Sequence record: MN850574.1
Length of the DNA stretch: 64,000 nucleotides
Source: Escherichia phage kaaroe
Reading direction: 5' to 3' (one strand)
How positions within the stretch are numbered: the first letter of the stretch is position 1; every line of letters begins with the position of its first letter. The notes under the pieces are model-generated. The model did not search any database. It was given only the letters and a program-made list of their open reading frames with translations, and had not been told where the DNA came from. Position numbers and translations under genes: made by a program. Shown here in pieces: positions 3,522-57,359 of this stretch.

Positions 3522-3524
3522 CAC

Positions 3525-3563
3525 TTGACATACAAGGGAGATTCTCTATAATGGGAGTCTCCC
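3525..3563 (+). promoter_or_regulatory. sigma70-type early promoter with palindromic spacer (PeSL-like)
   Basis: TTGACA, 16-nt spacer, TATAAT; -10 sits between inverted repeats GGGAGA/TCTCCC. Confidence 0.55.
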
Positions 3564-3586
3564 TTTTCTTTTATGAGGATTTAACG

Positions 3587-3886
3587 ATGAGCAAAAAGAA
3601 TAACATGATGATGAGTATGGCAAAGTTCATGGAAGCAGACCTGATCAAAAATACAGTACAGCATGAACGCCAGCGAGAAGCCGCAGTGATTGCAGAACAA
3701 GGTTTTCAGGTTATCCGCAATCCACCTAAAGATACGATTAAATCGAAATACAGAGAAGATCTGAAAGACCATGAAGTACGGGAACTGGTTAATGATCTGC
3801 GTGACATTGCCATCAAATATCATGGTTATCAGTGCTTACGAGAACTGATCGCAGAGCGAGTAATGGATGCATTGAAAAAAGATTAA
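3587..3886 (+). CDS. hypothetical protein (99 aa)
   Basis: Internal ATG of track ORF 3506-3886, preceded by GAGGA SD and the promoter at 3525. Confidence 0.55.
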   Translation: MSKKNNMMMSMAKFMEADLIKNTVQHERQREAAVIAEQGFQVIRNPPKDTIKSKYREDLKDHEVRELVNDLRDIAIKYHGYQCLRELIAERVMDALKKD

Positions 3887-10323: not shown

Positions 10324-10523
10324 TTATGAAAGAATATCCAGAAGGCGGTTATATTGCATTTGTGTACAACAATAAAAAGATTGTGCCAATGGTCGTTGAG
10401 ACTATGGAAGAAGCCAACCGGATCACTATTGAATCTCTGAGCAAATTAGCAGAGATGACAAACACACCAGAACACAGAGCAAAGATCGACAGCTTGATGA
10501 AAGAATTTTCAGAGAGGAAATAA
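10320..10523 (+). CDS. hypothetical protein (67 aa)
   Basis: ORF track; start overlaps gene 52 stop. Confidence 0.5.
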   Translation: MIMKEYPEGGYIAFVYNNKKIVPMVVETMEEANRITIESLSKLAEMTNTPEHRAKIDSLMKEFSERK

Positions 10524-10526
10524 ATT

Positions 10527-10922
10527 ATGACTGAACGACGCATTACTTCAAATGGTTTGGGTACTCATCATGCCTGGATGGTTGACCCAGACAAAAATCC
10601 TTATAAACTTTACGATACAACGATTAAACCGTGGAATAATGGCGTATGGAAAACACCACCCACAACAGCACCTATTATGACTGATCAGAAACCGTTTAGC
10701 CCGATGGCGGAACCAGTACAGATTAAGCCGTTACCTTACCAGATAACGACGAATAGCATCACCAACAAACAAGAAAATGATATTGATATGATCTACGAGA
10801 TGATTAAACTTTGGCGTGATGTTTATCTGGGTGTTCTCTGCAACACAGATAAAAGTGCACATGCGGCAGCGGTACTGGCATCTCATGCAGTAGACGAAGC
10901 CAAAAAGAAATTTAGTAAGTAA
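10527..10922 (+). CDS. hypothetical protein (131 aa)
   Basis: ORF track; AGAGGAAA SD. Confidence 0.5.
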   Translation: MTERRITSNGLGTHHAWMVDPDKNPYKLYDTTIKPWNNGVWKTPPTTAPIMTDQKPFSPMAEPVQIKPLPYQITTNSITNKQENDIDMIYEMIKLWRDVYLGVLCNTDKSAHAAAVLASHAVDEAKKKFSK

Positions 10923-12258: not shown

Positions 12259-12558
12259 ATGAATTTTACCGATAAAGTTTTTGAAATTAGTCGCACTACT
12301 TCAATTAAAAATCTTAGGGCGGCTGCATTTATGGTTGATAAAGGGTTTAATATGGCATCGTCTGACGGTGTACCGTACTTTGCACCAACTTTCGTTGGCT
12401 GGATGACTGATCGTAAACGTGATTACACTAAAGCATATCCGCATATGGTACTTAGTAAAATTATCACTAAAGTGTATCCACATATGGTACTTAATGACGT
12501 TATCACGGACCACGATCACTTTACAAACTTTATTGTTTCCGGTGAATGGCGAAAATAA
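12259..12558 (+). CDS. hypothetical protein (99 aa) with internal repeat
   Basis: Internal ATG of track ORF; contains YPHMVL direct repeat. Confidence 0.45.
   Translation: MNFTDKVFEISRTTSIKNLRAAAFMVDKGFNMASSDGVPYFAPTFVGWMTDRKRDYTKAYPHMVLSKIITKVYPHMVLNDVITDHDHFTNFIVSGEWRK
12436..12507 (+). repeat. intragenic imperfect direct repeat (two ~33-nt units)
   Basis: TATCCGCATATGGTACTTAGTAAAATTATCACT and TATCCACATATGGTACTTAATGACGTTATCACG. Confidence 0.6.
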
Positions 12559-36375: not shown

Positions 36376-36404
36376 TTGACGCGGGGAGAAATCCCCGCTA
36401 TAAT
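36376..36404 (+). promoter_or_regulatory. PeSL-like early promoter cassette
   Basis: TTGACG, CGGGGA-GAAA-TCCCCG hairpin in spacer, TATAAT. Confidence 0.55.
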
Positions 36405-45318: not shown

Positions 45319-46801
45319 TATCATTAATCAGCTTGCAGCAACAGACAAAACATCGCTGAAAGAAAAGATTCTGAAAGAATCCGCGAGCAATGAAACGCTG
45401 AAAGAATGCTTTTATCTGGCATATTGCAAACAGGTTACGTTTGGCGTAAAGAAATACGATAAACCGTCTCGCTATTCGTCTGTATTGTCTTTATCCGGTG
45501 CATTACAGGTCTTTAAAAATAAACTTGCCACGCGTCAAGTAACTGGTAATGCAGCATTACAGCTAGTTACCGATACTCTGACTTGCTTGTCAGAAAATGA
45601 TGCTAAAGTTGCAATGATGGTCCTGAATCGTGATCTGGAATGTGGTTGTTCCGCTACTACTGCAAACAAGGTATGGAAGAAACTGATCCCTCAGCAACCG
45701 TGCCACCTTGCATCGTCATGTTCTGATAAGACTATTGCTAATATCAAGTATCCGGCGTATGCACAACTTAAAAGCGATGGCGCTCGTGGTATGGCTGATA
45801 TTGACGGGGAAACATTAGCAATCTATACCCGCTCAGGTAATACCTATCAAGGGCTTGATGATTTGTTTGCGGTTTTAGAGCGTCTACGAGGCCGTGGAAT
45901 TGTTCTAGATGGCGAATTGGTATATATGCCTACCCTTTCGCAAACACCAGCGCAGAACTTCGTTGAAAGCGTTTATGATGGTACTCTGTCATGGATATTT
46001 GAAGAAGAGGAAATGCCATTAACGCCAGTAGCGGAAGCAGTGAAAGAATCCGTTGTTGCAGATCGTCAGACCGGAAATGGTATCCTCAACAAATCACTTA
46101 AAGGAACTATTCCAAAAGAAGAAGCCCAATGTATTGTTTACACTGTCTGGGATGTTATCGACCGTGATGTGTATTACGGAAACGAGAAAGCAACGAAGCA
46201 ATATAAAGATCGATTCGAAGAACTAAAACAGATTGTTGAAGAACTTAACGATCCTCGTGTTCAGATCATCGAAAACACTGTAGTTAACAATATCGATGAA
46301 GCTCGCGAAGTATATCATCGTTATGTCAACATGGGCTTAGAAGGTATTATCCTTAAAAATTTACATGGTGTATTTGAAGATCGCCGTAGTAAAGATCAGG
46401 TTAAATTTAAAGAAGTGATTGACTTCGACGCGGAAATTGTTGATGTATATCCGCATAGTAAAGACCCCAATAAGGTAGGCGGTTTTACTGTCCGTAGTGC
46501 GTGCGGACGAATGATGACTAACACCGGATCGGGATTAACCGACACTACAACCGAAAAAGGTGATGATGGTATCGAACGTGTAATTCCGTTCGATCGTCGA
46601 AATGAACTCGACCGAGAAATGTTATGGGCTGACCGTCATAACCTGATTGGAAAAGTCATTGAGATGACATGCAACGGGTATATCCGCAGCAAATCACGTA
46701 AAGAAGATGAACCGGAGTTCTCTTTATTTCTCCCAATCATCAAACGTATTCGCTACGACAAGACCACTGCAAATACAGTAAAAGAGGTATTCGATGTGTG
46801 A
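45305..46801 (+). CDS. 30: ATP-dependent DNA ligase
   Basis: ATG after GAGGTG SD; motif I KSDGAR; strong similarity to T4 ligase (LTGNAA, GLEGIILKN, KFKEVIDFD, DPNKVGGF). Confidence 0.92.
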   Translation: MSILNIINQLAATDKTSLKEKILKESASNETLKECFYLAYCKQVTFGVKKYDKPSRYSSVLSLSGALQVFKNKLATRQVTGNAALQLVTDTLTCLSENDAKVAMMVLNRDLECGCSATTANKVWKKLIPQQPCHLASSCSDKTIANIKYPAYAQLKSDGARGMADIDGETLAIYTRSGNTYQGLDDLFAVLERLRGRGIVLDGELVYMPTLSQTPAQNFVESVYDGTLSWIFEEEEMPLTPVAEAVKESVVADRQTGNGILNKSLKGTIPKEEAQCIVYTVWDVIDRDVYYGNEKATKQYKDRFEELKQIVEELNDPRVQIIENTVVNNIDEAREVYHRYVNMGLEGIILKNLHGVFEDRRSKDQVKFKEVIDFDAEIVDVYPHSKDPNKVGGFTVRSACGRMMTNTGSGLTDTTTEKGDDGIERVIPFDRRNELDREMLWADRHNLIGKVIEMTCNGYIRSKSRKEDEPEFSLFLPIIKRIRYDKTTANTVKEVFDV

Positions 46802-47270
46802 TAATGAAGGGGCGAAAGCCCCTAAACCTAAAAAATTGTCAAAGAAAGAGCAACGCCAGATCCTGAAAATGAAATATGGTGGACGTTGTGCCTATTGTGG
46901 CGAGGAACTAGGGGATCGCTGGCACGCGGACCACATCAAACCAGTATTGCGACGCTCAAAGGTAGTCTATGATGAAAATGGACGAATTGCCCGTAATGAT
47001 GATGGATCATGGAAATATAAGGTTGTAGGAATGCATAAACCGGAGCATGATATACTTGATAACATGAATCCGGCGTGTGTGCAATGCAATCTTTATAAAA
47101 GCTGTATGGGCTTAGAATACTGGCGTAAGTGTATACGCGAGAACTTCCAGAAGTACATTCAGCGCAATATGGGATTGCGAGCGGCTAAACGCTTTGGCTT
47201 GCTGTCAATCCACGACCAGCCAGTAGAATTTTATTTCGAAAAGTACGATCGCGAGCATCAAGAAAAATAA
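46794..47270 (+). CDS. HNH endonuclease
   Basis: 158 aa; CAYCG...HADHIKP...N...CVQCN; start overlaps ligase stop. Confidence 0.75.
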   Translation: MCDNEGAKAPKPKKLSKKEQRQILKMKYGGRCAYCGEELGDRWHADHIKPVLRRSKVVYDENGRIARNDDGSWKYKVVGMHKPEHDILDNMNPACVQCNLYKSCMGLEYWRKCIRENFQKYIQRNMGLRAAKRFGLLSIHDQPVEFYFEKYDREHQEK

Positions 47271-47283
47271 TTCAAAAAGTTGT

Positions 47284-47312
47284 TGACAGGGGATCGGTGA
47301 TCCCCTATACTA
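47284..47312 (+). promoter_or_regulatory. PeSL-like early promoter cassette
   Basis: TTGACA, GGGGATCGGTGATCCCC hairpin in spacer, TATACT; conserved leader. Confidence 0.6.
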
Positions 47313-47356
47313 CACACATCAAAACGAAACACACTTTCTTAAACGGAGAATCAAAA

Positions 47357-47668
47357 ATGAAATACATCGTAACGCTGCCAATGATTGACTTCGACGGAAC
47401 CATGAACACCCAGAAGACCATGAGCGCGGAGAACCAACTGAAAAACGCTACCCTGATTCGTGAAGTTCGCAAGGCACTGGCAAAAGAATTTAACACCAAA
47501 ATTCATTCTGTAACTGGCGAACGTTTCGCGGATCATCTTGATATCAACATCAAACCAGTGCGCAACGGTGTTATCTCTGTAACAACCAGCCGCCCACATG
47601 CTGACGCTGATAATCTGACCGCTCGCGCAGAAGATGTAATTATGACCGTTATCATGGAAAAACTTTAA
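47357..47668 (+). CDS. hypothetical protein (103 aa); paralog of 50675-50962
   Basis: ATG after GGAGAATCAAAA; shared VRKALAKEFN motif. Confidence 0.5.
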   Translation: MKYIVTLPMIDFDGTMNTQKTMSAENQLKNATLIREVRKALAKEFNTKIHSVTGERFADHLDINIKPVRNGVISVTTSRPHADADNLTARAEDVIMTVIMEKL

Positions 47669-47676
47669 AAAAGTTG

Positions 47677-47705
47677 TTGACAGGGGATCACCGATCCCCT
47701 ATACT
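47677..47705 (+). promoter_or_regulatory. PeSL-like early promoter cassette (hairpin in flipped orientation)
   Basis: TTGACA, GGGGATCACCGATCCCC, TATACT; conserved leader. Confidence 0.6.
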
Positions 47706-47739
47706 ACACACATACCGAAACGAACTAGGAGAATCAATT

Positions 47740-47919
47740 ATGAACTTCAACGAAATCATCGCTAAAATCCGCTACAACGAAGAAACCATTGAACTGATGC
47801 AAAACAATATCACCAATGGCTATATGATTGCAGCGTCACAAGAAATCATTGATTTGACGGTAGCAGAAAATGCTCAGTTGAAACATCAACTTTCAACGGC
47901 TGGCGTGATTGTTATGTAA
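47740..47919 (+). CDS. hypothetical protein (59 aa)
   Basis: ATG after AGGAGAATCAA. Confidence 0.5.
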   Translation: MNFNEIIAKIRYNEETIELMQNNITNGYMIAASQEIIDLTVAENAQLKHQLSTAGVIVM

Positions 47920-47936
47920 TAAAGAGAGGTGACTAA

Positions 47937-48239
47937 ATGGCAAAAGTTCAGGTAGGTGAGGTCTTCAAAATGGAAGACCACACCGTGGAAGAGATGAAAG
48001 GCGCAGTATTGAAAGTAATTAATTCAATGTGGCGTAGTGTGCTTTACATCAACTTTATCGACGGTGATGTGTGGTGGGCTAGCGATAGCGATAAATGGGA
48101 TATCAAGTTCTACAAAGGTCATACTCACTGGTTAGGATCAGAGGATGTTGTAGAAGTTCTTGCGGTTGATGTTATGCCAGGAGAGATCGAGAATCTTAGC
48201 GGAACAGCAAAAGAAGCATTGACACGCCATTTTGCGTAA
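47937..48239 (+). CDS. hypothetical protein (100 aa), HxHW-family paralog
   Basis: ORF track; GHTHWLGSEDVVEVLAVDV. Confidence 0.5.
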   Translation: MAKVQVGEVFKMEDHTVEEMKGAVLKVINSMWRSVLYINFIDGDVWWASDSDKWDIKFYKGHTHWLGSEDVVEVLAVDVMPGEIENLSGTAKEALTRHFA

Positions 48240-48295
48240 TGTAGTATAACAATAATCGGGAGGGTAATACTCTCCCACAAATTGAGGATAATATT

Positions 48296-48487
48296 ATGTG
48301 TGGTCTTAAAATGGTTGCTGAATATAAGCGAACTGGTAATGTTATGATGTATCGACGCAATACCAACGAAGAATGGAAACCTTCAAACCGCATTAAATCC
48401 ATCCAGACGTTTATGAATAACATAAAAGAAAACCTTTTCGTTAAGCGTGCTGGTGTTGGACATTGGGAAGTTTACGAAGCTGTATAA
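48296..48487 (+). CDS. hypothetical basic protein (63 aa)
   Basis: ORF track; GAGGATAATATTATG. Confidence 0.5.
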   Translation: MCGLKMVAEYKRTGNVMMYRRNTNEEWKPSNRIKSIQTFMNNIKENLFVKRAGVGHWEVYEAV

Positions 48488-48500
48488 TTTTGAGGAAAAT

Positions 48501-48797
48501 ACTATGGAACATACTAATTTGTTTGTAGCCGAACCTTTCGTTGAAGGCAATAAAAATCTGGCTAATACCGTTATTCTTTATGAAGATTGGATCTTTTACA
48601 TCGACGAGCATTTAGATGTATTTTGTCGCACAGATAAAAGTGACCAATTTCCAATTGAAAAAAATCGAACATCAAATCATTGGTACGGCGGGAATGACGA
48701 AACCGACCTAGCTATTGTTCTAGAATCAGGCGTAGAATCTGAACATGCCAATGAAGTGGCAGACAAATTTATGAAATACGCATATAAAGCATTATAA
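48501..48797 (+). CDS. hypothetical acidic protein (98 aa)
   Basis: Internal ATG of track ORF after GAGGAAAA SD. Confidence 0.5.
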   Translation, partial: TMEHTNLFVAEPFVEGNKNLANTVILYEDWIFYIDEHLDVFCRTDKSDQFPIEKNRTSNHWYGGNDETDLAIVLESGVESEHANEVADKFMKYAYKAL

Positions 48798-48802
48798 AGT
48801 TG

Positions 48803-48831
48803 TTGACAGGGGATCGGTGATCCCCTATAAT
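48803..48831 (+). promoter_or_regulatory. PeSL-like early promoter cassette
   Basis: TTGACA, GGGGATCGGTGATCCCC, TATAAT; conserved leader. Confidence 0.6.
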
Positions 48832-48863
48832 GCACACATACCAACGAGATAGGAGAATCAAAA

Positions 48864-49031
48864 ATGTTCCAGACTAAAGCAGAATGCGAAGCATACATTG
48901 TAGCAAACCACGGTGAAGACTACCTGAAATTCGATATCGTAGTAGCACAGAAGATCACCGGAATGGTTGCAAAATATCTGGGTGTTAAAGAAGGTTACTA
49001 TCCGAGCAACGCACCGGAAATCAACAAATAA
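48864..49031 (+). CDS. hypothetical protein (55 aa); near-identical copy at 52144-52311
   Basis: MFQTKAECEAYIVANHGEDYLKFDIVVAQK...; below track cutoff. Confidence 0.5.
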   Translation: MFQTKAECEAYIVANHGEDYLKFDIVVAQKITGMVAKYLGVKEGYYPSNAPEINK

Positions 49032-49034
49032 TAG

Positions 49035-49068
49035 TTGACAATGATTAAAGGGAGTAGTAAGATACTCA
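49035..49068 (+). promoter_or_regulatory. PeSL-like early promoter cassette (degenerate palindrome)
   Basis: TTGACA ... GGGAGTAGTAAGATACTCACA; conserved leader. Confidence 0.5.
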
Positions 49069-49095
49069 CATCAAGACAACAAACGGAGAATCAAA

Positions 49096-49275
49096 ATGAA
49101 AGCTATCGAAGTTCAGAAGTACATGGAACTCATCATTGAAGGTAAAGCACATACAGTATTGACTACCCACGTAGGATATGATAAAAATGTGCATATGCTG
49201 GTAGACAATATCGGCTGGATGAAGTTTAACCCTAACGAGAACGTACAAGCTCAAGAAATGACCATCCCTTTCTAA
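49096..49275 (+). CDS. hypothetical protein (59 aa)
   Basis: MKAIEVQKYMELIIEGKAHTV...; GGAGAATCAAA SD; below track cutoff. Confidence 0.45.
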   Translation: MKAIEVQKYMELIIEGKAHTVLTTHVGYDKNVHMLVDNIGWMKFNPNENVQAQEMTIPF

Positions 49276-49287
49276 GAGGAATATATT

Positions 49288-49566
49288 ATGATGCGAATTA
49301 CTGCAACGCTGGATAAGACACACAAAGAAAGATTTTTCGGTATGATCTTAAAAACGCCGATTTTCGATAATTACCTTTATGTTGACTATGAAGGTCACAT
49401 TAGCTATAAATGTAAAAATGATATTCGTGATTCCTTTGGTGATAAATCACAAGCTGATATTCATGACCACTGGTGGAACCATGACGAACCTTTACGAGTT
49501 ATCGCAGTTGATGTAAAAACAACAAAAGAAGCTGATAAGGTAGTGAATGATTATGAGCAAATTTAA
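49288..49566 (+). CDS. hypothetical protein (92 aa), HxHW-family paralog
   Basis: ORF track; HDHWWNHDEPLRVIAVDV. Confidence 0.5.
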   Translation: MMRITATLDKTHKERFFGMILKTPIFDNYLYVDYEGHISYKCKNDIRDSFGDKSQADIHDHWWNHDEPLRVIAVDVKTTKEADKVVNDYEQI

Positions 49567-49810
49567 AGAATACAAAGCATATCAACAGATCCTGCGAGTA
49601 TACGCACCAGAGTTCGCCGAAAAGATGATGGAAGATGCATCAAAATGCCCGTCCTTTTCTGGAAACAAAAACCATTATTCTACTCGTATTGTATCATGGA
49701 AAGAAACATGTTACACTCAACAGTGGATAAACGTTTTCTCAAAAACAATTGGTTGGAATGGTGTTAATTATGGGTATTCAGAGTCAATTCAAAGATTATC
49801 GAGTGTATAA
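49553..49810 (+). CDS. hypothetical protein (~85 aa), tandem paralog 1
   Basis: ORF track; MSKFKEYKAYQQILRVYAPEFAEKMMEDASKCPSF. Confidence 0.45.
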   Translation: MSKFKEYKAYQQILRVYAPEFAEKMMEDASKCPSFSGNKNHYSTRIVSWKETCYTQQWINVFSKTIGWNGVNYGYSESIQRLSSV

Positions 49811-49988
49811 AGAAATCTGTGCTGTATTTGATGAGAAAACAGCAGATAAAATGATGAAAGAAGCGTCACAATGTTCATCTTTTGTTGATAACAAAGATTT
49901 AAGAGTAAATGAGATCGTGTGCTGGAGCGACACGAAACATGAAATTGTATGGCGTACCGTGTACTATAGCCGCGACCGAGGATTATAA
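49770..49988 (+). CDS. hypothetical protein (72 aa), tandem paralog 2
   Basis: Internal ATG of track ORF; MGIQSQFKDYRVYKEICAVFDEKTADKMMKEASQCSSF. Confidence 0.45.
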   Translation: MGIQSQFKDYRVYKEICAVFDEKTADKMMKEASQCSSFVDNKDLRVNEIVCWSDTKHEIVWRTVYYSRDRGL

Positions 49989-49989
49989 A

Positions 49990-50310
49990 ATGAAATTAAC
50001 TAAAAAGATTTTCCCAGAATTGCGTAACTGTCTGTTACTGGTTACTGAATATAAACCTTATACGATCTATTTGTACGTTGATGAAAATCTGAAAATCCGT
50101 TACTATGATTATACGTCTCCAGTGATGAAATCATTTGCTCACTCGATCGCAAATAACTGTATGAATCACAATCATTGGGTATCAGAAACGGATGACGATG
50201 CGTCAGAAGTTGTAGTGGTTGCATGGAATCTATCACCAGCGGAAGCAGATCAAGCACGCATTAAGCATTATGCGAAAAACAATTGGTTTGACCTTATAAA
50301 TGAGGACTAA
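49990..50310 (+). CDS. hypothetical protein (106 aa), HxHW-family paralog
   Basis: Internal ATG of track ORF; HNHWVSETDDDASEVVVVAWN. Confidence 0.5.
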   Translation: MKLTKKIFPELRNCLLLVTEYKPYTIYLYVDENLKIRYYDYTSPVMKSFAHSIANNCMNHNHWVSETDDDASEVVVVAWNLSPAEADQARIKHYAKNNWFDLINED

Positions 50311-50314
50311 TATT

Positions 50315-50593
50315 ATGTTCAAAGTAGGTGATAAGTTTATTCTTAGTCGTGATATTCTCCCTAATCTGAAAGGTTGTATCATCAATCCTAGTAAAAATTC
50401 ATGGTTTTATCTGTTTATCGATGATGATCTAAATGTACGCGCCGAATATAAAGAAGGTCTTCGTACTGGTCTTGGTTTCTTTCACGATCATGACCATAGC
50501 CATTGGCTAAACGGTGGATTCGAAGCAACGGTGATAGCGGTTGATGTGGATTACACAAACATCATAGAAAAATATCAAAAAATTATTTTATAA
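50315..50593 (+). CDS. hypothetical protein (92 aa), HxHW-family paralog
   Basis: ATG after GAGGACTAATATT; HDHDHSHWLNGGFEATVIAVDV. Confidence 0.5.
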   Translation: MFKVGDKFILSRDILPNLKGCIINPSKNSWFYLFIDDDLNVRAEYKEGLRTGLGFFHDHDHSHWLNGGFEATVIAVDVDYTNIIEKYQKIIL

Positions 50594-50599
50594 AAAGTG

Positions 50600-50634
50600 T
50601 TGACATAAGATCGGGTGTATAGCATAATACACCC
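50600..50634 (+). promoter_or_regulatory. PeSL-like early promoter cassette
   Basis: TTGACA; GGGTGTATAGCATAATACACCC palindrome with CATAAT; conserved leader. Confidence 0.6.
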
Positions 50635-50674
50635 ATCGAAACGAGATACACTTTCTAACTAGGAGAATCAAATT

Positions 50675-50962
50675 ATGGCATACATTACTATCACTCTGAA
50701 AGTTAACAAATTTGCTCACGCTGCACACGAAACCGATAATGCAATCCGTAACAACAAGTTCGCACGTCTGGTACGCGATGCAGTAGCTAAAGAGTTCAAC
50801 TTCAAATTTGCAGATGGTAAAGTTATCACTAAATGGACTCATGACGGCGAAACTAAAGTAGAACTTGCTGACAACTTCGCAAATCAGGAATATGCACACC
50901 GTCGCATTAATGAAATCATCAGCGATGAACTCTACTACGGTGTACAGGAAGGACTGTTTTAA
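50675..50962 (+). CDS. hypothetical protein (95 aa); paralog of 47357-47668
   Basis: ORF track; LVRDAVAKEFNFK. Confidence 0.5.
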   Translation: MAYITITLKVNKFAHAAHETDNAIRNNKFARLVRDAVAKEFNFKFADGKVITKWTHDGETKVELADNFANQEYAHRRINEIISDELYYGVQEGLF

Positions 50963-50966
50963 TATA

Positions 50967-50987
50967 CGGGGCGTTAAGCCCCCTTTT
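50967..50987 (+). terminator. intrinsic terminator
   Basis: GGGGC-GTTAA-GCCCC followed by CTTTTC. Confidence 0.5.
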
Positions 50988-51011
50988 CATCCAACTATTG
51001 AGGATAATACT

Positions 51012-51320
51012 ATGAAAGATAATATCTTTGAATTTACCCGCGAAAATCTCCCAATGTTCCGAAAGTCTCTGCTTAAACTAGAGAACAGCAATTACGATGT
51101 ATATTTTTACATCACCGAAGATCTAGAGATCCTTTACGCTGATTACCCAGGTCCGATCCGTACCTTCGAAGAAGCATCGCAGTATAAAAATGTTCACGGT
51201 CATGAGCACTGGTTACGAGAAAACCCAGGTCGCAAGAAAGCACGCGTTAAAGTGATTGCGATTGACGTAACACCAGCATACGCCGACCGGATTGCACTGA
51301 ATGATTATTTGTCTAAATGA
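51012..51320 (+). CDS. hypothetical protein (102 aa), HxHW-family paralog
   Basis: ATG after GAGGATAATACT; HGHEHWLRENPGRKKARVKVIAIDV. Confidence 0.5.
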   Translation: MKDNIFEFTRENLPMFRKSLLKLENSNYDVYFYITEDLEILYADYPGPIRTFEEASQYKNVHGHEHWLRENPGRKKARVKVIAIDVTPAYADRIALNDYLSK

Positions 51321-51327
51321 TTTTATT

Positions 51328-51353
51328 AGCCGACCTTAGCGTCGGCTTTTTTA
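51328..51353 (+). terminator. intrinsic terminator
   Basis: AGCCGAC / GTCGGCT stem followed by TTTTTTATT. Confidence 0.65.
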
Positions 51354-51376
51354 TTGCATAAAATTAAAAAAAAGAA

Positions 51377-51410
51377 TTGACACCAGATCACGCCTATAGC
51401 ATAATACACC
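51377..51410 (+). promoter_or_regulatory. PeSL-like early promoter cassette
   Basis: TTGACA ... CATAATACACCC; conserved leader. Confidence 0.55.
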
Positions 51411-51445
51411 CATCGAAACGAGATACCACTTAGGAGAATCAAACA

Positions 51446-51715
51446 ATGGCACTGACTAAAACCACTACCAACTTTGCAAAACGTCACGGCTTCGACATTG
51501 AAATCAATAGCTTTAACGATTACACTCTTCTGTGTGTATATGAAATCGAAAATGATTGCGAGTGGATGTTCAGCTATCGCGTAAACGAAGACGGATCTTT
51601 CACTTGGAACGGAAATATCTATCTTGCACAGGAAGTAAAAGAAGAACTTCCGGCGAATATCAAAGATGAGAAACATTTACGTCAAGTTTTAAAATTTATT
51701 TCTGAAAATATCTAA
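51446..51715 (+). CDS. hypothetical protein (89 aa)
   Basis: ORF track; GGAGAATCAAAC SD. Confidence 0.5.
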   Translation: MALTKTTTNFAKRHGFDIEINSFNDYTLLCVYEIENDCEWMFSYRVNEDGSFTWNGNIYLAQEVKEELPANIKDEKHLRQVLKFISENI

Positions 51716-51723
51716 AAAAGTTG

Positions 51724-51757
51724 TTGACACCAAAGTAAGAACATAGCATAATACACC
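51724..51757 (+). promoter_or_regulatory. PeSL-like early promoter cassette
   Basis: TTGACA ... CATAATACACCC; conserved leader. Confidence 0.55.
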
Positions 51758-51785
51758 CATACCGAAACGAACTGGAGAATCAAAA

Positions 51786-52067
51786 ATGAAATTCATCAAA
51801 GCAACCGAAATCCTGAAAAACAAAGAAGCATACATCGGAAACATCGTTGGTATGAACATTCGCGGCGCTGGTAGCCAGTGGACCAAACTGGTTGATGTTA
51901 AAGCTAAAGGCGATAAAATTGAGTTCACTGTAAAAATGCTTACTCATAACGCACATATGGGTATCAAGACAAAAACGATGGCAGCAGATAAAAGCATTAA
52001 CTATCAGGGTCTGGGTGATTGGCTGAACTGGTGCAAAATGCACAATATCGAAACTAATCACGAATAA
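51786..52067 (+). CDS. hypothetical protein (93 aa)
   Basis: ORF track; GGAGAATCAAAA SD. Confidence 0.5.
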   Translation: MKFIKATEILKNKEAYIGNIVGMNIRGAGSQWTKLVDVKAKGDKIEFTVKMLTHNAHMGIKTKTMAADKSINYQGLGDWLNWCKMHNIETNHE

Positions 52068-52081
52068 TTTTAAAAAAGTTG

Positions 52082-52110
52082 TTGACGGGGATCGGGAGAT
52101 CCCCTATAAT
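52082..52110 (+). promoter_or_regulatory. PeSL-like early promoter cassette
   Basis: TTGACG, GGGGATCGGGAGATCCCC, TATAAT; conserved leader. Confidence 0.6.
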
Positions 52111-52143
52111 ACACACATAACGAAACGAAATAGGAGAATCAAA

Positions 52144-52311
52144 ATGTTCGAGACTAAAGCAGCATGTGAAGCATATATCATTGAAACCCACGGCGAAGAT
52201 TATCTGAAATTTGACATTGTAGTAGCACAGAAGATTGTAGGGATGGTTGCAAAATATCTGGGTGTTAAAGAAGGTTACTATCCGAGCAACGCACCAGAAA
52301 TTAACAAATAA
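52144..52311 (+). CDS. hypothetical protein (55 aa); near-identical copy of 48864-49031
   Basis: MFETKAACEAYIIETHGEDYLKFDIVVAQK...; below track cutoff. Confidence 0.5.
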   Translation: MFETKAACEAYIIETHGEDYLKFDIVVAQKIVGMVAKYLGVKEGYYPSNAPEINK

Positions 52312-52325
52312 TTTTATAAAAAGTA

Positions 52326-52354
52326 TTGACAGGGGAGGATAACTCCCCTACAAT
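52326..52354 (+). promoter_or_regulatory. PeSL-like early promoter cassette
   Basis: TTGACA, GGGGAG-GATAA-CTCCCC, TACAAT; conserved leader. Confidence 0.6.
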
Positions 52355-52394
52355 ACAACCATCAAGACGAGATACCACTTAGGAGAATCAAACA

Positions 52395-52646
52395 ATGGCT
52401 AACATCGAAACCGCAAAGAAAATCGCTAAAGACCTGAACGTTAAAGGCTTCCGTAAACTGAAATTACAGCGTGTACGCTACACCATCGGCAAACAGTGCT
52501 CTTTCATGAGCGAAGAAGTTGCTAACAGCCTCATTGATAACCTGATTGCGGCTGGCTGGGAAGTTGCGGATCTGAAAACTTGCCGCGAACTGGCTAACAA
52601 AGGTCTTTTAGATTCTGTTACTATCAAACCAATGGGGGCAGCGTGA
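52395..52646 (+). CDS. hypothetical protein (83 aa); first gene of the coupled operon
   Basis: ORF track; GGAGAATCAAAC SD. Confidence 0.5.
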   Translation: MANIETAKKIAKDLNVKGFRKLKLQRVRYTIGKQCSFMSEEVANSLIDNLIAAGWEVADLKTCRELANKGLLDSVTIKPMGAA

Positions 52647-52888
52647 AAAGAAAATTAATTAAACGCAATAAGGAATTTCTTAATAACTGCATTAAGGCCG
52701 CTAATGGTTGGCCTTTGTGCCTCTTCCTTTATGATTGGTATTCTAAACAATCAGTTGAGGAAACACGACACTATAAGAAGATCAGAAAAGAATCATATAC
52801 AAAACAAGGCCGCATTAACGGACTTTACTTAATGTGGCACGGCAAAGAACCTTCTAAAATCTGCGTTGGATTAAAGGGGCGTATATGA
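52643..52888 (+). CDS. hypothetical basic protein (81 aa)
   Basis: ORF track; start overlaps previous stop. Confidence 0.5.
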   Translation: MKRKLIKRNKEFLNNCIKAANGWPLCLFLYDWYSKQSVEETRHYKKIRKESYTKQGRINGLYLMWHGKEPSKICVGLKGRI

Positions 52889-53601
52889 AACAAAAATTAA
52901 TATTCTGTAACTTTGACGGATCGGGGATAATGGGGCTAGAATGGGCTAAAGCAGGTCATAAGGTGATCTGCTTTAATGCTGACGATGGCGACCACGGCAC
53001 ATACAAAAAGTATAATACCAGATTTGAACACCCAAACATTACCTATGTAAACACATGGATTGATTTGAACTGGCTAGAAAGAGCAATGGACCTTGAATGG
53101 GGGAAACCGGATATTATCTTTGCATTCCCACCGTGCACCAATTTAGCTGTTAGTGGCGCTGCACACTTTGAACGAAAGAAACGAGAACAAGGACCATTGA
53201 TTCAAGTTCATGATGTAAGGGCAGCTAAAATAACCGCTTATTTGGGTGAATGGCTAGGAGTTCCCTACATGATAGAGAATCCTGTAAGCGTTATCTCTAG
53301 CATGTGGCGTAAGCCTGATTACATGTTCCACCCGTGGGAATATGGCGGTTATTTGCCGGAAGATGATAAACATCCTACTTTTCCTGAGTATATCGCCGCC
53401 CGTGATATGTACCCGAAAAAGACTTGCTTATGGACCGGACAAGGCTTTATAATGCCAGAAAAGAAACCGTTGCAGATTAATAAAGGGTACAGTAAACAGC
53501 ATTCTAAGCTAGGCGGGAAAGGAACGAAAACAAAGACTATCAGGTCACTTACCCCGCGAGGATTCGCAAAGGCAGTATTTGAAGCAAATAAGGATCTATG
53601 A
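52885..53601 (+). CDS. short DNA C5-cytosine methyltransferase-like protein (no obvious target-recognition domain)
   Basis: 238 aa; motif I-like FDGSGIMG, motif IV-like FPPCTNLAVSGA, motif VI-like IENPVSV. Confidence 0.55.
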   Translation: MKQKLIFCNFDGSGIMGLEWAKAGHKVICFNADDGDHGTYKKYNTRFEHPNITYVNTWIDLNWLERAMDLEWGKPDIIFAFPPCTNLAVSGAAHFERKKREQGPLIQVHDVRAAKITAYLGEWLGVPYMIENPVSVISSMWRKPDYMFHPWEYGGYLPEDDKHPTFPEYIAARDMYPKKTCLWTGQGFIMPEKKPLQINKGYSKQHSKLGGKGTKTKTIRSLTPRGFAKAVFEANKDL

Positions 53602-53936
53602 TGAGATTGTTTAAGTATTCGCTAACGTCAAATTACGATAAACAAGGTCATTGCATCCGTTGCCCTGATTGTCATAGCCATAACATCGAAAGCAAGATCA
53701 CCGATCATATTGATGGACTTTGGTCGCCAGCAAGTGAAATAGAATACTATTGCGCTGATTGTGGAATTGTAGTAGCATATTGGGCATACGGATCATATGA
53801 TCCATACTTCCAGATGGGAGAACGTTCAATCCCTGCGCTTATCTGGAGAATTAAGAACAATATCCGCTATTCATGGGATGAGTTCTTAAAAGATATTGAT
53901 TTACGTGATGATCCATTCAGGAGAACTATATTATGA
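53598..53936 (+). CDS. zinc-finger protein (112 aa)
   Basis: CIRCPDCHSH ... CADCG cysteine clusters; start overlaps previous stop. Confidence 0.5.
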   Translation: MMRLFKYSLTSNYDKQGHCIRCPDCHSHNIESKITDHIDGLWSPASEIEYYCADCGIVVAYWAYGSYDPYFQMGERSIPALIWRIKNNIRYSWDEFLKDIDLRDDPFRRTIL

Positions 53937-54112
53937 TAACACCACAACTACACGGTAAAGAGATTTGCGATCTTACTTGGGAAGAGTTGGTCATGTATCG
54001 CGACACCTACAAATGGTTTGAATCCATGAAAGAATTTGTAGCAGCAGTACGAGAAGAAATGAGCATTCGCCAGTATGCGGACGCATATATTGAAAAGGTA
54101 AGCACACTATGA
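53933..54112 (+). CDS. hypothetical protein (59 aa)
   Basis: MITPQLHGKEICDLTWEELVMYRDTYKWF...; overlaps neighbours on both sides; below track cutoff. Confidence 0.45.
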   Translation: MITPQLHGKEICDLTWEELVMYRDTYKWFESMKEFVAAVREEMSIRQYADAYIEKVSTL

Positions 54113-54627
54113 ACCGTTTAACGCCTAAACGCCGTTACTATACCAATACTAAAAACTTTGTCATCTCTGTTTATGAGGCGTGGTTAGAAGATGGCTTTAT
54201 CAACATGAACCCAGATTATCAGCGTCCTTTGGTATGGGACACCGAAAACAAACGTATGTTTATCGAAAACCTGATTAATGATTTTCCGGTTGGTGCTATC
54301 GCAATGGCTAAGATTGATGATGGCTCTCGCTATGAGATCGAAATCGTGGACGGTAAACAGCGTTTAAACGCAATATTCTCCTTCATGAAGGATGAGTTTA
54401 GCATTGCTGGTAATGATGATTCTATGTTGTATTACAGTGATTTTACGCCAGCAGAAAAGCGACGTTTCCGAAATCTCGGACTACCCGCGATCATGATGGA
54501 AGAGAGCACACGAGAAGACCGATTAGAGTATTTCTACAAAACAAACTTTTTCGGTGTGCCTCAATCGGAAGAACATCGCCAGCATGTGATTGCCCTATTG
54601 CAAGATGAGCAATTAAAAAATAACTAA
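54109..54627 (+). CDS. DUF262-like (ParB/Srx-fold, GmrSD/DndB N-terminal-type) domain protein
   Basis: 172 aa; PDYQRPLVWD...FPVGAIAMA...YEIEIVDGKQRLNAIFSF (DGQQR-type motif). Confidence 0.55.
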   Translation: MNRLTPKRRYYTNTKNFVISVYEAWLEDGFINMNPDYQRPLVWDTENKRMFIENLINDFPVGAIAMAKIDDGSRYEIEIVDGKQRLNAIFSFMKDEFSIAGNDDSMLYYSDFTPAEKRRFRNLGLPAIMMEESTREDRLEYFYKTNFFGVPQSEEHRQHVIALLQDEQLKNN

Positions 54628-54635
54628 AAAAGTTG

Positions 54636-54664
54636 TTGACAGGGGATCATCGATCCCCTATAAT
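54636..54664 (+). promoter_or_regulatory. PeSL-like early promoter cassette
   Basis: TTGACA, GGGGATCATCGATCCCC, TATAAT; conserved leader. Confidence 0.6.
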
Positions 54665-54698
54665 ACACACATACCGAAACGAACTAGGAGAATCAAAC

Positions 54699-54878
54699 AT
54701 GAAACACTTAACCATCGAATCGGCAATCATCGCAATCGCTAAAGTTCAAGCGGCTTATAATTGCACTGACATTGAAGCCATTTCAAAAATGCAAGCAGAA
54801 GCAGCAAAAGCGGGTGACGAGAAATCTTTAGATGTTCTCTGCGAAATCAAAGCAGAATTGATTTCAAAAATGTTCTAA
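54699..54878 (+). CDS. hypothetical protein (59 aa)
   Basis: Internal ATG of track ORF after AGGAGAATCAAAC. Confidence 0.5.
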   Translation: MKHLTIESAIIAIAKVQAAYNCTDIEAISKMQAEAAKAGDEKSLDVLCEIKAELISKMF

Positions 54879-54884
54879 AAGTTG

Positions 54885-54919
54885 TTGACATAACAGAGGG
54901 TGTATATCACAATACACCC
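54885..54919 (+). promoter_or_regulatory. PeSL-like early promoter cassette
   Basis: TTGACA; GGGTGTATATCACAATACACCC palindrome; conserved leader. Confidence 0.55.
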
Positions 54920-54949
54920 ATACCGAAACGAACTACTAAGGAGTATCAA

Positions 54950-55162
54950 ATGGCTAACATCGAAATCATCATTACCGACGTAACTTATGACCGCATTAAC
55001 GAAATCGGTACTGCATTACTGGAAGATGGAACAACTCGTACCATCAACTACGCAGAATACGTTGAAATGCGCGGTTGTATTAAACGAGTAGGAAAATATA
55101 TCCTGATTGAAAAAGACTATTCAGGATACACCTTAGAGCAATTGCTCGATGGTGCATTATAA
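54950..55162 (+). CDS. hypothetical protein (70 aa)
   Basis: ORF track; AAGGAGTATCAA SD. Confidence 0.5.
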   Translation: MANIEIIITDVTYDRINEIGTALLEDGTTRTINYAEYVEMRGCIKRVGKYILIEKDYSGYTLEQLLDGAL

Positions 55163-55167
55163 TAAAT

Positions 55168-55188
55168 GGGGGCGTTAAGCCCCTTTTT
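55168..55188 (+). terminator. intrinsic terminator
   Basis: GGGGGC-GTTAA-GCCCC followed by TTTTTC. Confidence 0.6.
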
Positions 55189-55229
55189 CATAAATATAGG
55201 TTTATAGGTTATCAACTAGAGGATATAAA

Positions 55230-57281
55230 ATGTTTAACTTAGAAATCGACGATCTAATGATTGAATCTTTCGAGAAATGGCTGTTGACGGAAGAGGAAGA
55301 AAACTTTGGCAGTATTGCTCCGGTACAGTGCTTAAAGCCTAAGCAGAATCCTAAACAGCTTTTTGCAGTACAGACACGCGATAAAGATGTGATTGTCCGT
55401 CTTTGTAACTTCACCAACAAAACACCTAAAATCATTCGTATGGGTGACAAGACCGCACATGTTGTACTGTGCGAAATGAACAAAAGCGGTCGTATTGTAC
55501 AGCTTAAAAATGGTCTAGGCGATAACCCGATTGCAGTTATGTCAAGTGCTTTTGATGTGGTTATGGAAACAGCCCGTAAAGCGCAATTAGACGCTGTTAT
55601 GTTCCGTTTTAACGTATCCCGCATGAAAGGTAAGACCGAACTGGTTAAGCGCGTTATAGAGCGTTTGGTGCGTCGTACACCGAAGTTTGAAGTATTCCAG
55701 CAGGAAGTAATGACCAGCAAAAAGATCGCTTTAGTTGTTGTCAAGCGTCGCGGGATGGCGATTGATAAGATTAAAGGTATTAAACTTGATGAATCCTTGT
55801 TCACTAAAGTAGAAAGTGATTTAGGTGATCGCTGGGTATCTAAGGCTACTGGTGAATCTCTGACTAAAGATGAGGCATATGCGGCTAGTCTTGTGTCAGA
55901 AGAAGAACGAAACGCGGAAGCAGAACAACGCGTAGCGGCTAAATCTCGTTTGACTAAAGAAGAAATGCTGAAAACTCAAGCGACATATAACAGCGACTAC
56001 GTGAATCATCCAGAAAAAATTAATCTTAAACCGGAAGAAGATATCACCGAAGCAGAACCTAAGAAACAGTTTAATACTCTGATTGACCGTCAAGCCTTAG
56101 AACGTTCAACCGCCCGTTCTCTGAATGACTGGACAAGTGATATTATCACTCGCTATGGTTTCATGCGTACTATTTTTGAAAGCGAAGCCGATGCAAAATA
56201 CGCAGTAAGCGAACTGGTAAAAGTTCAGGATCAATATGATCCATTGTCTGCGGAAGTTATCGCAGCCTCGGTCAAACGCTTAAAAGAAATCATGAGCGAG
56301 GAAGTATTCGAAAACAAGATCACCGCCCTGGCAATGGATCGAGTAGACCAGTCTATGCCAGCAGATGTAAAAGCTGAAATGCTGCGTAGTCATATCACCC
56401 AGATTAAAACAGATGCCCTACGTAATATTGCCTCCGGTATGTTTGAAGCAATTGCTAGCAACATGGGTGAAATGATGGCAGATATTGATCTTGATCTGCC
56501 GGGCGCGGAAGGTTTTGTGTTGAGCGAATATGCCGATGCAGCATACATCAATATGAACAACTTCCTAACCGACCGTAAGCTGGAAGAGTTTGAAGGCATC
56601 GCAGATCCAGAAGAATTGGTCAAGATGTGCGATGCACTGGATAATGCCTTCTCCAACTATGGCGTTAAACTTGATCCGGGTACTATTCTGTATCGTGGTA
56701 TGGACTTCCGGTCGCAAATGTGGGAAACTGCACGTAAGCAAAAAGCGTTTTACTTTAAAAACTATGTGAGCACTTCCCTTGCACCTAACATTTTTGGCGG
56801 CTGGAATGCAAACGTGGCTAGTGCCGTTGCTGGTGTTGATTCTATGGCTGGCTCTCGCGGTGAAGGTGGCGCTAATGTTGCTTTCTCCATTGCTGGCGCG
56901 GAAAACATCCCTGTATTGCCAGTAGGTAACAAAGCATTTGCTTACAAAGAATGCGAGATTTTACTTCCTCGCGGTGTTGTGTTATCCTTTGATACGGTAA
57001 CTCGTGCTACGGCATCGACGGATTCACAAGAAACTTATTACATCGAGGCACATATTATGAACAAAAATGAACTGGCAGCATTACAAGAATCTGGCGAGAT
57101 GATCGCGGACGGTGATGCATTCATCCGTGAAGGTGTTGTTAAACCGGCTTCTGACCTGTCTTTCTCCAGCTTCATTAGCGAAGCTAAAACCGAACGTAAG
57201 AAAGCAGATAAGGCAACTCTACGTCAGCTTATCGCTGATCTGGTATCTGTAGACGCAATGCCAGATAAATTTAAAATGTAA
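55230..57281 (+). CDS. alt: Alt-like ADP-ribosyltransferase (packaged RNA polymerase-modifying enzyme)
   Basis: 683 aa (T4 Alt is of similar length); C-terminal R-S-E triad (LYRG, YVSTSL, ECEILLPRG); between ligase and baseplate genes. Confidence 0.8.
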   Translation: MFNLEIDDLMIESFEKWLLTEEEENFGSIAPVQCLKPKQNPKQLFAVQTRDKDVIVRLCNFTNKTPKIIRMGDKTAHVVLCEMNKSGRIVQLKNGLGDNPIAVMSSAFDVVMETARKAQLDAVMFRFNVSRMKGKTELVKRVIERLVRRTPKFEVFQQEVMTSKKIALVVVKRRGMAIDKIKGIKLDESLFTKVESDLGDRWVSKATGESLTKDEAYAASLVSEEERNAEAEQRVAAKSRLTKEEMLKTQATYNSDYVNHPEKINLKPEEDITEAEPKKQFNTLIDRQALERSTARSLNDWTSDIITRYGFMRTIFESEADAKYAVSELVKVQDQYDPLSAEVIAASVKRLKEIMSEEVFENKITALAMDRVDQSMPADVKAEMLRSHITQIKTDALRNIASGMFEAIASNMGEMMADIDLDLPGAEGFVLSEYADAAYINMNNFLTDRKLEEFEGIADPEELVKMCDALDNAFSNYGVKLDPGTILYRGMDFRSQMWETARKQKAFYFKNYVSTSLAPNIFGGWNANVASAVAGVDSMAGSRGEGGANVAFSIAGAENIPVLPVGNKAFAYKECEILLPRGVVLSFDTVTRATASTDSQETYYIEAHIMNKNELAALQESGEMIADGDAFIREGVVKPASDLSFSSFISEAKTERKKADKATLRQLIADLVSVDAMPDKFKM

Positions 57282-57298: not shown

Positions 57299-57327
57299 TT
57301 GACTCAAACGGGGACTAGTTTTATACT
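57299..57327 (+). promoter_or_regulatory. sigma70-type promoter with palindromic spacer
   Basis: TTGACT, CGGGGACTAGT...ACTAGCCCCG inverted repeat, TATACT. Confidence 0.5.
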
Positions 57328-57359
57328 AGCCCCGTTTTCTGTTATATGGGAGGTTTAAA

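Follow-up and report, generated by a model that had tools for sequence, protein, structure and literature searches.

The window, by which we mean the whole stretch of Escherichia phage kaaroe DNA that was analysed (64,000 nt; MN850574.1), contains five promoters with a hairpin between their -35 and -10 hexamers. Their downstream ORFs are homologues of ORF210, ORF209, ORF205, ORF191, and ORF186 (Table 1). Exact search of the window found the 17-mer GGGGATCGGTGATCCCC on the + strand at 47289–47305 and 48809–48825, and its reverse complement, GGGGATCACCGATCCCC, at 47683–47699. When the loop was left free, an extra copy, GGGGATCATCGATCCCC, was obtained at 54642–54658. The copy at 52087–52104 has a tetraloop, GGGA. 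The 17-mer was absent from all dinucleotide shuffles of the window (0/100 with a match). The first-pass annotation had reported the hairpin and its reverse complement at these sites, and both are real. Its position for the 47683 copy was exact, and the true starts of three other copies (47289, 48809, and 54642) lie 1–2 nt from the ones it gave (47291, 48810, and 54643). The further loop variants that it had noted at 52087 and 54643 proved to be GGGA and, with the corrected start of 54642, ATC.

The spacer between -35 and -10 was 17 nt at all five sites and was occupied by the hairpin. The sequence AAAAAGTTG was found upstream of every -35, and the A-rich tract contains the stop codon of the preceding gene; the hairpins start 11–19 nt past these stop codons. 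Downstream of each copy, a conserved leader was followed by GGAGAATCAAA(n)ATG. The stem GGGGATC/GATCCCC is a perfect 7-bp palindrome, which is extended to 8 bp by a flanking A–T pair. Because the stem itself is palindromic, GGT versus ACC is the only difference between the "reverse complement" copies, and only the loop can reveal orientation. The flipped sequence described in the first-pass annotation is thus real and is limited to the 3-nt loop. The identical promoter context that it had claimed for the 47289 and 47683 copies was confirmed, extending 22 nt to the left and 21 nt to the right of the loop.

The window comes from an RB49-like coliphage (Krischvirus) and is 96–99.6% identical to phages of the RB49 group (MIZ6, RB49, JSE, Phi1, GEC-3S, and others). 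In 2010, Arbiol, Comeau, Kutateladze, Adamia, and Krisch described promoter-early stem-loops, or PeSLs, in phages RB49 and phi1 (PMC2839356); in 2014, Comeau et al. extended the description to further T4-like phages (PMC4122927). A stem-loop between -35 and -10, typically GGGG...CCCC, is the commonest PeSL subclass (PMC2839356). On sequence grounds, the five sites are PeSLs, a regulatory cassette of RB49-like T4-type phages. They have a consensus promoter, an A-rich tract, a spacer hairpin of the form GGGG...CCCC, a Shine-Dalgarno sequence, and a small downstream ORF(an), and they agree with the PeSLs of RB49 and phi1 in all these features as well as in phage group, stem-loop position, and hyperplastic location. 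The published PeSL206/205 is the orthologue of the 48803 copy, and promoters are annotated at the same sites in the GEC-3S record. Relatives share the 10 kb around the finding only as a mosaic (44–98% coverage in 2–8 pieces). Gene content between PeSLs varies, with ORF insertions and deletions in the annotation tables of the relatives, indicating a hyperplastic region. No Rfam 15 family was found at the gathering threshold within 46500–55500. The element is already known, and the loop-orientation polymorphism with its statistics is the only addition made here, a modest one; the loop in both orientations is absent from the text of the 2010 paper (PMC2839356).

Table 1. Hairpin promoters and associated features in the window (all positions refer to the 64,000-nt stretch)
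Feature	Position	Strand	-35	Hairpin	-10	ATG	Sigma-70 consensus score	Remarks
PeSL between the ORF212 homologue (HNH endonuclease) and ORFan210	47272..47356	+	TTGACA 47283-47288	GGGGATC-GGT-GATCCCC 47289-47305; loop 47296-47298	TATACT 47306-47311	47357	11/12	Upstream stop 47268-47270; Shine-Dalgarno before ATG; RNA hairpin -12.8 kcal/mol
ORFan210 homologue, 103 aa	47357..47668	+						Bracketed by the 47289 and 47683 hairpin promoters
PeSL ORFan210/ORF209	47666..47739	+	TTGACA 47677-47682	GGGGATC-ACC-GATCCCC 47683-47699; loop 47690-47692	TATACT 47700-47705	47740	11/12	"Flipped" copy
PeSL upstream of ORF205	48790..48863	+	TTGACA 48803-48808	GGGGATC-GGT-GATCCCC 48809-48825	TATAAT 48826-48831	48864	12/12	ORF205 100% identical to RB49
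PeSL upstream of ORF191	52072..52143	+	TTGACG 52082-52087	GGGGATC-GGGA-GATCCCC 52087-52104	TATAAT 52105-52110	52144	11/12	GNRA-form tetraloop; first G common to -35
PeSL upstream of ORF186	54626..54698	+	TTGACA 54636-54641	GGGGATC-ATC-GATCCCC 54642-54658	TATAAT 54659-54664	54699	12/12	
Sister PeSL	52326..52354	+		GGGGAG-GATAA-CTCCCC 52332-52348				Different stem, perfectly complementary
Sister PeSL in another variable region	36376..36404	+		GCGGGGA-GAAA-TCCCCGC 36381-36398				

The ORFan210 homologue was 99% identical to Phi1 ORF210 and 93% identical to RB49 ORF210. In published experiments, ORFan210 was excised as encapsidated mini-circles via recombination between its flanking PeSLs, and the RB49 mini-circle crossover was mapped within the hairpin loop (PMC2839356). 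As the gene at 47357–47668 is ORF210, the 47289 and 47683 copies are the cassette pair of that mini-circle experiment. Four relatives, AV108, JK32, SFHK24, and Whisky, were without ORFan210. The junction was recovered in AV108, JK32, SFHK24, and metagenome loci, and it consisted of one chimeric PeSL with the ORF212-side flank and the ORF209-side leader. These chimeras carried either the left-hand loop (GGT) or the right-hand loop (ACC/GCC). Trees built from upstream flanks and from downstream flanks were discordant, and both loop orientations were paired with both -10 variants. In some genomes, the ORF209 and ORF205 sites also had the GGGA loop, and in MIZ6 and FL38 the 52326 sister site holds a GGGGATC-GGGA hairpin instead. 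Recombination of PeSLs is visible here and is published for these same copies (PMC2839356). The recombination hotspot proposed in the first-pass annotation was therefore borne out, the natural ORFan210 deletions having left chimeric promoter-hairpins.

To compare loops, the homologous region was taken from 19 complete genomes and from metagenome and IMG/VR loci, and 101 promoter-context hairpins were sorted by the N-terminal sequence of the ORF that follows. Scanning metagenomes with promoter context yielded 14 loci on about 6 contigs. Searching IMG/VR with the bare palindrome GGGGATCNNNGATCCCC was uninformative, as the matches listed were unrelated viral contigs; with promoter context added, 2 contigs were obtained. 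Loops at the ORF205 site (MFQTKA) were ACC (11), GGT (9), ACA (2), TGT (1), and GGGA (1), and those at the ORF209 site (MNFNEI) were ACC (9), GGT (2), GCC (2), and GGGA (2). The ORF210 site (MKYIVT) had GGT in eight cases and ACC in one (ELT4). The loops were GGT (8), ATC (7), AGT (1), and ACC (1) at the ORF186 site (MKHLTI) and GGGA (16) and ACC (2) at the ORF191 site (MFETKA). Three sites came from metagenomes: MSNLSF (GGC 2, GCC 1), MKHTHK (GGT 2, GGC 2, GCC 1), and MWTLLI (GCGA 1, TCGC 1). The half-sites GGGGATC were invariant in more than 100 copies, and the centre varied. The GATAA loop of the 52326 sister PeSL was constant in 12–13 relatives.

Collection-wide loop counts were made on 50,697 phage records by megablast with exact 31-nt queries in promoter context. 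Exact queries were chosen because BLAST with a GAT-loop query cannot separate GAT from GGT plus one flank mismatch. GGT was found at 77 places and its reverse complement ACC at 53, which is near parity. TGT and its reverse complement ACA were found at 2 places each, both confined to the ORF205 site (TGT in Whisky and 011D4, ACA in SFHK24 and SSG23). ATC was present at 15 places in 15 records, whereas its reverse complement GAT was present at none. Similarly, GGGA was present at 47 places in 46 records, versus 0 for its reverse complement TCCC.

The window alone is weak evidence for a flip: reverse-complement triloops within it have a coincidence probability of about 5% (hand calculation from three distinct triloops, which form three pairs with a chance of 1/63 each). 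The comparative sequence data are convincing. Reverse-complement loop pairs (GGT/ACC, TGT/ACA, GCGA/TCGC, and GGC/GCC) were strongly over-represented, making up 8 of the 22 same-length loop pairs at the same site where about 0.35 was expected; reverse-only pairs were 0 of 22. The loop was swapped for its exact reverse complement between identical 25-nt flanks for GGT/ACC (at four sites), TGT/ACA, and GCGA/TCGC. Between RB49 and AV108, the loop was flipped and only 3 of 500 flanking nt differed. The GCGA/TCGC pair is independent and comes from two more distant metagenome phages, with 8 of 500 flanking nt differing. Beyond the PeSL triloops, no flipped loops were found in other hairpins of the region. 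One candidate with CAG/CTG loops was rejected, being a single central substitution. The remaining hairpins there are for the most part AT-rich, lie within genes, and are attributable to chance.

Inversion had to be weighed against a simpler history, in which GGT and ACC are old alleles that became complementary via ordinary substitutions and were then spread by gene conversion or crossover. Recombination is documented and is also seen here, as chimeric PeSLs, discordant trees, and moving GGGA and ATC loops. Both GGT and ACC are abundant as donors in every genome, and the loops that lack an existing flipped donor (ATC and GGGA) were never flipped. All of this agrees with old alleles, and yet we consider such a history unlikely. 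The step from GGT to ACC takes three substitutions, since all 3 positions differ, and the intermediates are nearly absent (AGT once; GCT, ACT, and AGC none). The 4-nt pair GCGA/TCGC arose in a different lineage, and the excess of reverse-complement pairs had no reverse-only counterpart. Within the collection, TGT and ACA are restricted to one and the same site; therefore, there is no donor copy from which gene conversion could supply them. They could still be parallel G:C-to-T:A changes, and the chance of obtaining the rc-matched neighbours TGT/ACA and GGC/GCC by independent point mutation from GGT and ACC was about 0.23 (hypergeometric, hand calculation). DNA-level inversion, which the first-pass annotation had listed among its possibilities, is the best explanation for the origin of the GGT and ACC forms.

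Parsimony on flank trees gave 7–11 changes at the ORF205 site (GGT/ACC) and 6–7 at the ORF186 site (GGT/ATC). Alternation at one site is no proof of repeated in-situ flips, because alternation between GGT and ATC, which no inversion can produce, is just as patchy and the flank trees disagree. We rejected the recurrent-flip reading of the ORF205 counts, as recombination of old alleles can yield this pattern. ATC (15) and GGGA (47) were never seen flipped, and flipping is therefore not fast. An origin in situ would fit TGT/ACA, which is single-site in the collection, yet every genome contains potential donors of GGT and ACC, and loops are shuffled. Inversion and gene conversion are confounded here because the cassette is multicopy and the phage is highly recombinogenic. 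Inversion and recombination both operate, and they can be told apart in these data only partially. We conclude that at least two independent loop inversions took place, and probably three or more, which spread mostly by recombination.

Folded as RNA, the five hairpins had predicted energies of -12.8 to -13.9 kcal/mol, with z-scores of -2.7 to -4.7. GGU, ACC, and AUC loops gave equal predicted energies (-12.8 kcal/mol as RNA and -7.2 as DNA). A cruciform of either orientation shows the same two loops. For the tetraloop, GGGA was predicted at -13.9 versus -13.0 kcal/mol for the flipped UCCC, 0.9 better, and the flipped orientation appears to be disfavoured for this GNRA-type loop. GNRA loops are likewise enriched in the forward orientation among RNA hairpins with template-switch inversions (PMC8794818). 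Triloop orientation is most likely neutral. A selected or functional orientation is not supported, as orientation varies in near-identical genomes (3/500 nt), occurs with either -10 variant, and leaves the predicted energy equal. That annotation had itself named random loop orientation among related genomes as evidence against its view. Tabulated across the relatives, loop orientation was haphazard, and the flip behaves as neutral variation.

The hairpin itself is a different matter. Perfectly complementary stems occurred as GGGGATC/GATCCCC, GGGGAG/CTCCCC, GGGGAT/ATCCCC, and GCGGGGA/TCCCCGC. Internal stem mismatches were G.T only (GGGGGTC..GATCCCC; 4 cases, no A.C) when counted on the core stem, extension into ACA..TAT being an artefact. 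The G.T-only mismatches and the varied complementary stems fit a single-stranded role of the + strand, as RNA. Sister promoters with no hairpin were common, for example 24 copies of TTGACA-CCAAAGTAAGAACATAG-CATAAT, indicating that the hairpin is dispensable for promoter recognition. The first-pass view of the hairpin as a feature apart from the promoter was therefore upheld, because stem variants stay complementary and sister hexamers occur without it. On the whole, that annotation was right about selection on the hairpin itself and about a recombination site, and silent on the identity of the elements as PeSLs; a meaning of orientation is not supported. We also considered a Dam/GATC explanation and rejected it, as the 349 GATC sites of the window show no depletion against the 335 expected. 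Each hairpin contains two GATC sites, which is unremarkable.

PeSL hairpins resemble intrinsic terminators in their G+C-rich stem of 7–8 bp (-12.8 kcal/mol as RNA) and in lying shortly past a stop codon (11–19 nt). They differ in having the -10 hexamer UAUACU/UAUAAU in place of a U-run; the tail after the stem is TATACT/TATAAT ACACAC. A terminator scan called 0 of the 5 sites on the + strand, and it called canonical terminators nearby at 50968, 51328, and 55168. Fused to lacZ, PeSL206/205 yields about 13,000 Miller units, and the PeSL211/210 stem-loop cuts downstream lacZ about as strongly as the rrnB T1 terminator (PMC2839356). The stem-loop in that terminator test was the RB49 PeSL211/210 sister, GGGGAT-CACGT-ATCCCC, whose sequence is other than that of the copies studied here.

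Constant half-sites around a free centre could also mean that the 17-bp palindrome is a duplex operator for a dimeric protein, such as an early-promoter shutoff regulator or a recombination helper, which leaves the central 3 bp uncontacted. The GGGGATC half-sites fit this well. Repressor sites classically lie between -35 and -10, and Arbiol et al. speculated on a GGGG..CCCC-binding protein (PMC2839356). However, what is conserved is complementarity, not sequence: sister PeSLs differ in the stem and in where it lies on the promoter (e.g., GGGAGTA..TACTCCC overlapping -10), and mismatches limited to G.T fit single-stranded or RNA structure on the + strand. The common 4-nt GGGA loop also alters the half-site spacing. 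No candidate protein emerged, and binding is unnecessary to explain the data; an operator is thus doubtful. The presence of both orientations at one site in near-identical genomes might suggest a programmed invertible switch that alters promoter output by phase variation. A 3-nt unit with 7-bp arms is far too small for a recombinase synapse, the -35 and -10 are untouched, and the predicted energy is unchanged. Moreover, ATC and GGGA never flip, and related isolates are stable (TGT in both Whisky and 011D4, ACA in both SFHK24 and SSG23), which makes a switch very improbable. It is just as hard to believe that the flips arose as artefacts when a palindrome was sequenced or assembled. Inverted repeats can in general yield strand-switch chimeras in library preparation, but the loop states recur in independently sequenced relatives and are tied to specific sites, and any read spans a 17-nt hairpin. 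Somewhat apart stands the idea that the flips are scars of an active, structure-targeted process, in which the palindrome, extruded in the course of infection as a hairpin or cruciform, is nicked or serves as a strand-switch point for the replication and recombination machinery of the phage, frequently so in phage populations. Endonuclease VII or the adjacent HNH endonuclease may be examples of the enzyme involved, and the loop may be the initiation point of shuffling. The RB49 crossover within the loop would fit such a process, which we nevertheless regard as improbable.

The reading that we think probably accounts for the whole is one of PeSL cassettes that attenuate transcripts, promote gene shuffling, and carry loops of neutral orientation, inverted by template switching and spread by recombination. 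PeSLs would separate small accessory genes in hyperplastic (variable) regions. The promoter would fire the downstream gene, with the spacer hairpin sitting where RNA polymerase does not read bases singly. Only RNA arriving from upstream would include the hairpin, and that transcript would be attenuated or terminated. The near-identity of about 45 nt between copies would make them substrates for phage recombination, by which genes are excised, deleted, and shuffled. During replication, the polymerase may switch strands across the 7-bp arms, copy the loop from the opposite strand, and switch back. GGT and ACC forms would then be carried between sites and genomes by PeSL–PeSL and allelic recombination. 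It was others who showed that the promoter is active, that a sister stem-loop acts as a terminator, and that PeSLs recombine. Our own data provide identity, orthology, loop polymorphism with its statistics, and energy neutrality, the last as predicted. Template switching as the inversion mechanism is what we infer from them. The loop flip is most likely a harmless micro-inversion that requires no new mechanism.

T4 is a classic system for quasi-palindrome templated mutations. Such templated mutagenesis in T4 was reportedly the subject of work by Ripley in 1982 and by Schultz and Drake in 2008, and minute hairpin inversions in chloroplast non-coding DNA are said to have been described by Kelchner and Wendel in 1996. 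The standard route for loop inversion is a double template switch in replication (PMC8794818, PMC5453318). Inter-strand template switching was described as the cause of loop inversion at perfect hairpins by Monttinen and Loytynoja in 2022 (PMC8794818), and template-switch inversions were also described by Loytynoja and Goldman in 2017 (PMC5453318). The PeSL loops resemble these cases in the exact reverse complement of the loop, the untouched stems, the short perfect inverted repeats, and the forward orientation of GNRA-type loops. They differ in that the mechanism is inferred here and in being part of a promoter cassette present in many copies. Another comparison is offered by the hairpin promoters of phage N4, as PeSLs likewise have a short hairpin with a 3-nt loop inside a phage early promoter. 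The virion RNA polymerase of N4 recognises its promoters by the extruded DNA hairpin itself. PeSLs differ in having full sigma-70 consensus hexamers and hairpin-less sisters. We know of no sign of an N4-like hairpin-recognising polymerase in T4-type phages.

For the hairpin within the promoter, the question is closed: it is a named cassette that has been studied since 2010 and is a driver of gene shuffling in T4-type phages. The small addition made here is a clean natural micro-inversion of a hairpin loop in a phage, with triloops occurring in both orientations near parity and a GNRA-type tetraloop kept in one. The pattern also gives a hint that the active form of the hairpin is + strand RNA and not duplex DNA. 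Across about 45 nt of identity nothing but the loop is informative, which makes the loop a cheap marker for crossover points inside PeSLs. If the flips were indeed scars of an active, structure-targeted process, loop flipping would be frequent within phage populations, and not a rare replication error.

The small gene ORFan210, which lies between two promoter-early stem-loops (PeSLs; sigma-70 promoters with a hairpin), was compared across homologous loci. It was cleanly missing from several relatives (AV108, JK32, SFHK24 and Whisky). At the ORFan210-less loci from which a junction hairpin was recovered, a single chimeric promoter-hairpin was left. AV108 and JK32 had a GGT loop in it; the loop of SFHK24 and of the metagenome loci L123, L145 and L146 was ACC or GCC. 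Crossovers at these junctions fell on either side of the loop, and the junctions are natural counterparts to the published mini-circle excision.

Positions of the features described
Feature	Sequence	Position
ORFan210	window	47357-47668
ORF212	window	46794-47270
ORFan210-less locus	AV108 (L152)	2521-3252
ORFan210-less locus	JK32 (L156)	3038-3770
ORFan210-less locus	SFHK24 (L148)	5795-6527
ORFan210-less locus	Whisky (L153)	2170-2770
Hairpin 5' of ORF210	RB49 AY343333 (L130)	5022-5050
ORF186 site, 8-bp stem	Phi1 (L129)	~10490-10530
ORF186 site, 8-bp stem	kvi (L128)	~10478-10518
PeSLs with -10-spanning hairpin	window	11990, 12570, 38920, 39201, 39426, 49035; also 50600, 54885
alt gene	window	55230-57281
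Promoter-like site 3' of alt	window	57299-57345
ORF205 homologue	window	48861-49032
ORF191 homologue	window	52141-52312
Tandem direct repeat (family D13)	window	12426-12503
Separate terminator	window	51328-51347
Hairpin-less PeSL promoter	window	51377-51405

The gene directly 5' of the first hairpin promoter is ORF212, for which the annotation in relatives is HNH endonuclease. RB49, JSE, Delraymugoa, PHB13, G2494 and Whisky carry an extra ORF211 between ORF212 and the PeSL. The RB49 hairpin 5' of ORF210, published as PeSL211/210, is GGGGAT-CACGT-ATCCCC, and the same hairpin was present in loci L126, L131, L147, L150 and L153-L155. Compared with the ACC form it is a 2-nt variant, with the stem reduced to 6 bp and the loop grown to 5 nt. 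The published terminator assay used this RB49 sequence, not the window's own (PMC2839356).

Stem length also varied at the ORF186 site, the PeSL named after ORF186, where some genomes had an additional G 5' of the stem (TTGACAG-GGGGATC...). In LF73P4, AV108 and PHB13 (loci L127, L152 and L154) the extra G occurred alone, giving a G.T pair. In Phi1 and kvi it was accompanied by a change of the -10 from TATAAT to CATAAT, and the stem was lengthened to 8 bp (GGGGGATC/GATCCCCC). These variants look like stepwise or templated stem growth at a cost to the -10 consensus.

In other PeSL subclasses the hairpin spans the -10 hexamer. One such hairpin is GGGAGTA-GTAAGA-TACTCCC, with the variant GGGGGTA..TACCCCC; a further one is GGGTGTAT-AGCATA-ATACACCC. 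Because the -10 sits inside their loops, a flip is impossible without promoter destruction. A search for flipped loops among the region's other hairpins found none in these subclasses. The promoter-like site 3' of alt, conserved in 19 relatives, has a hairpin (GGGGACTAG..CTAGCCCC) overlapping the -10, followed by GTTTTCTG. It seems to unite a terminator and a promoter in one element of a different design.

Over the whole window, GGCC was strongly depleted (26 observed, 72 expected; ratio 0.36) and GGATCC did not occur, while the GATC count matched expectation. The GGCC depletion and GGATCC absence may reflect restriction avoidance.

At the DNA level the ORF205 homologue is 87% identical to its paralogue, the ORF191 homologue; the two encode 55-aa proteins (MFQTKAECEA... 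and MFETKAACEA..., respectively). Each has a PeSL with a GATC-hairpin (GGGGATC-loop-GATCCCC) on its 5' side. The pair looks like a cassette-mediated duplication. Another variable region contains a tandem direct repeat of two 39-nt units with 82% identity.

One of the hairpin-less PeSL promoters has a terminator of canonical form immediately on its 5' side, with the hairpin AGCCGAC-CTTAGC-GTCGGCT and then TTTTT. The arrangement fits the idea of a built-in hairpin normally replacing a separate terminator.
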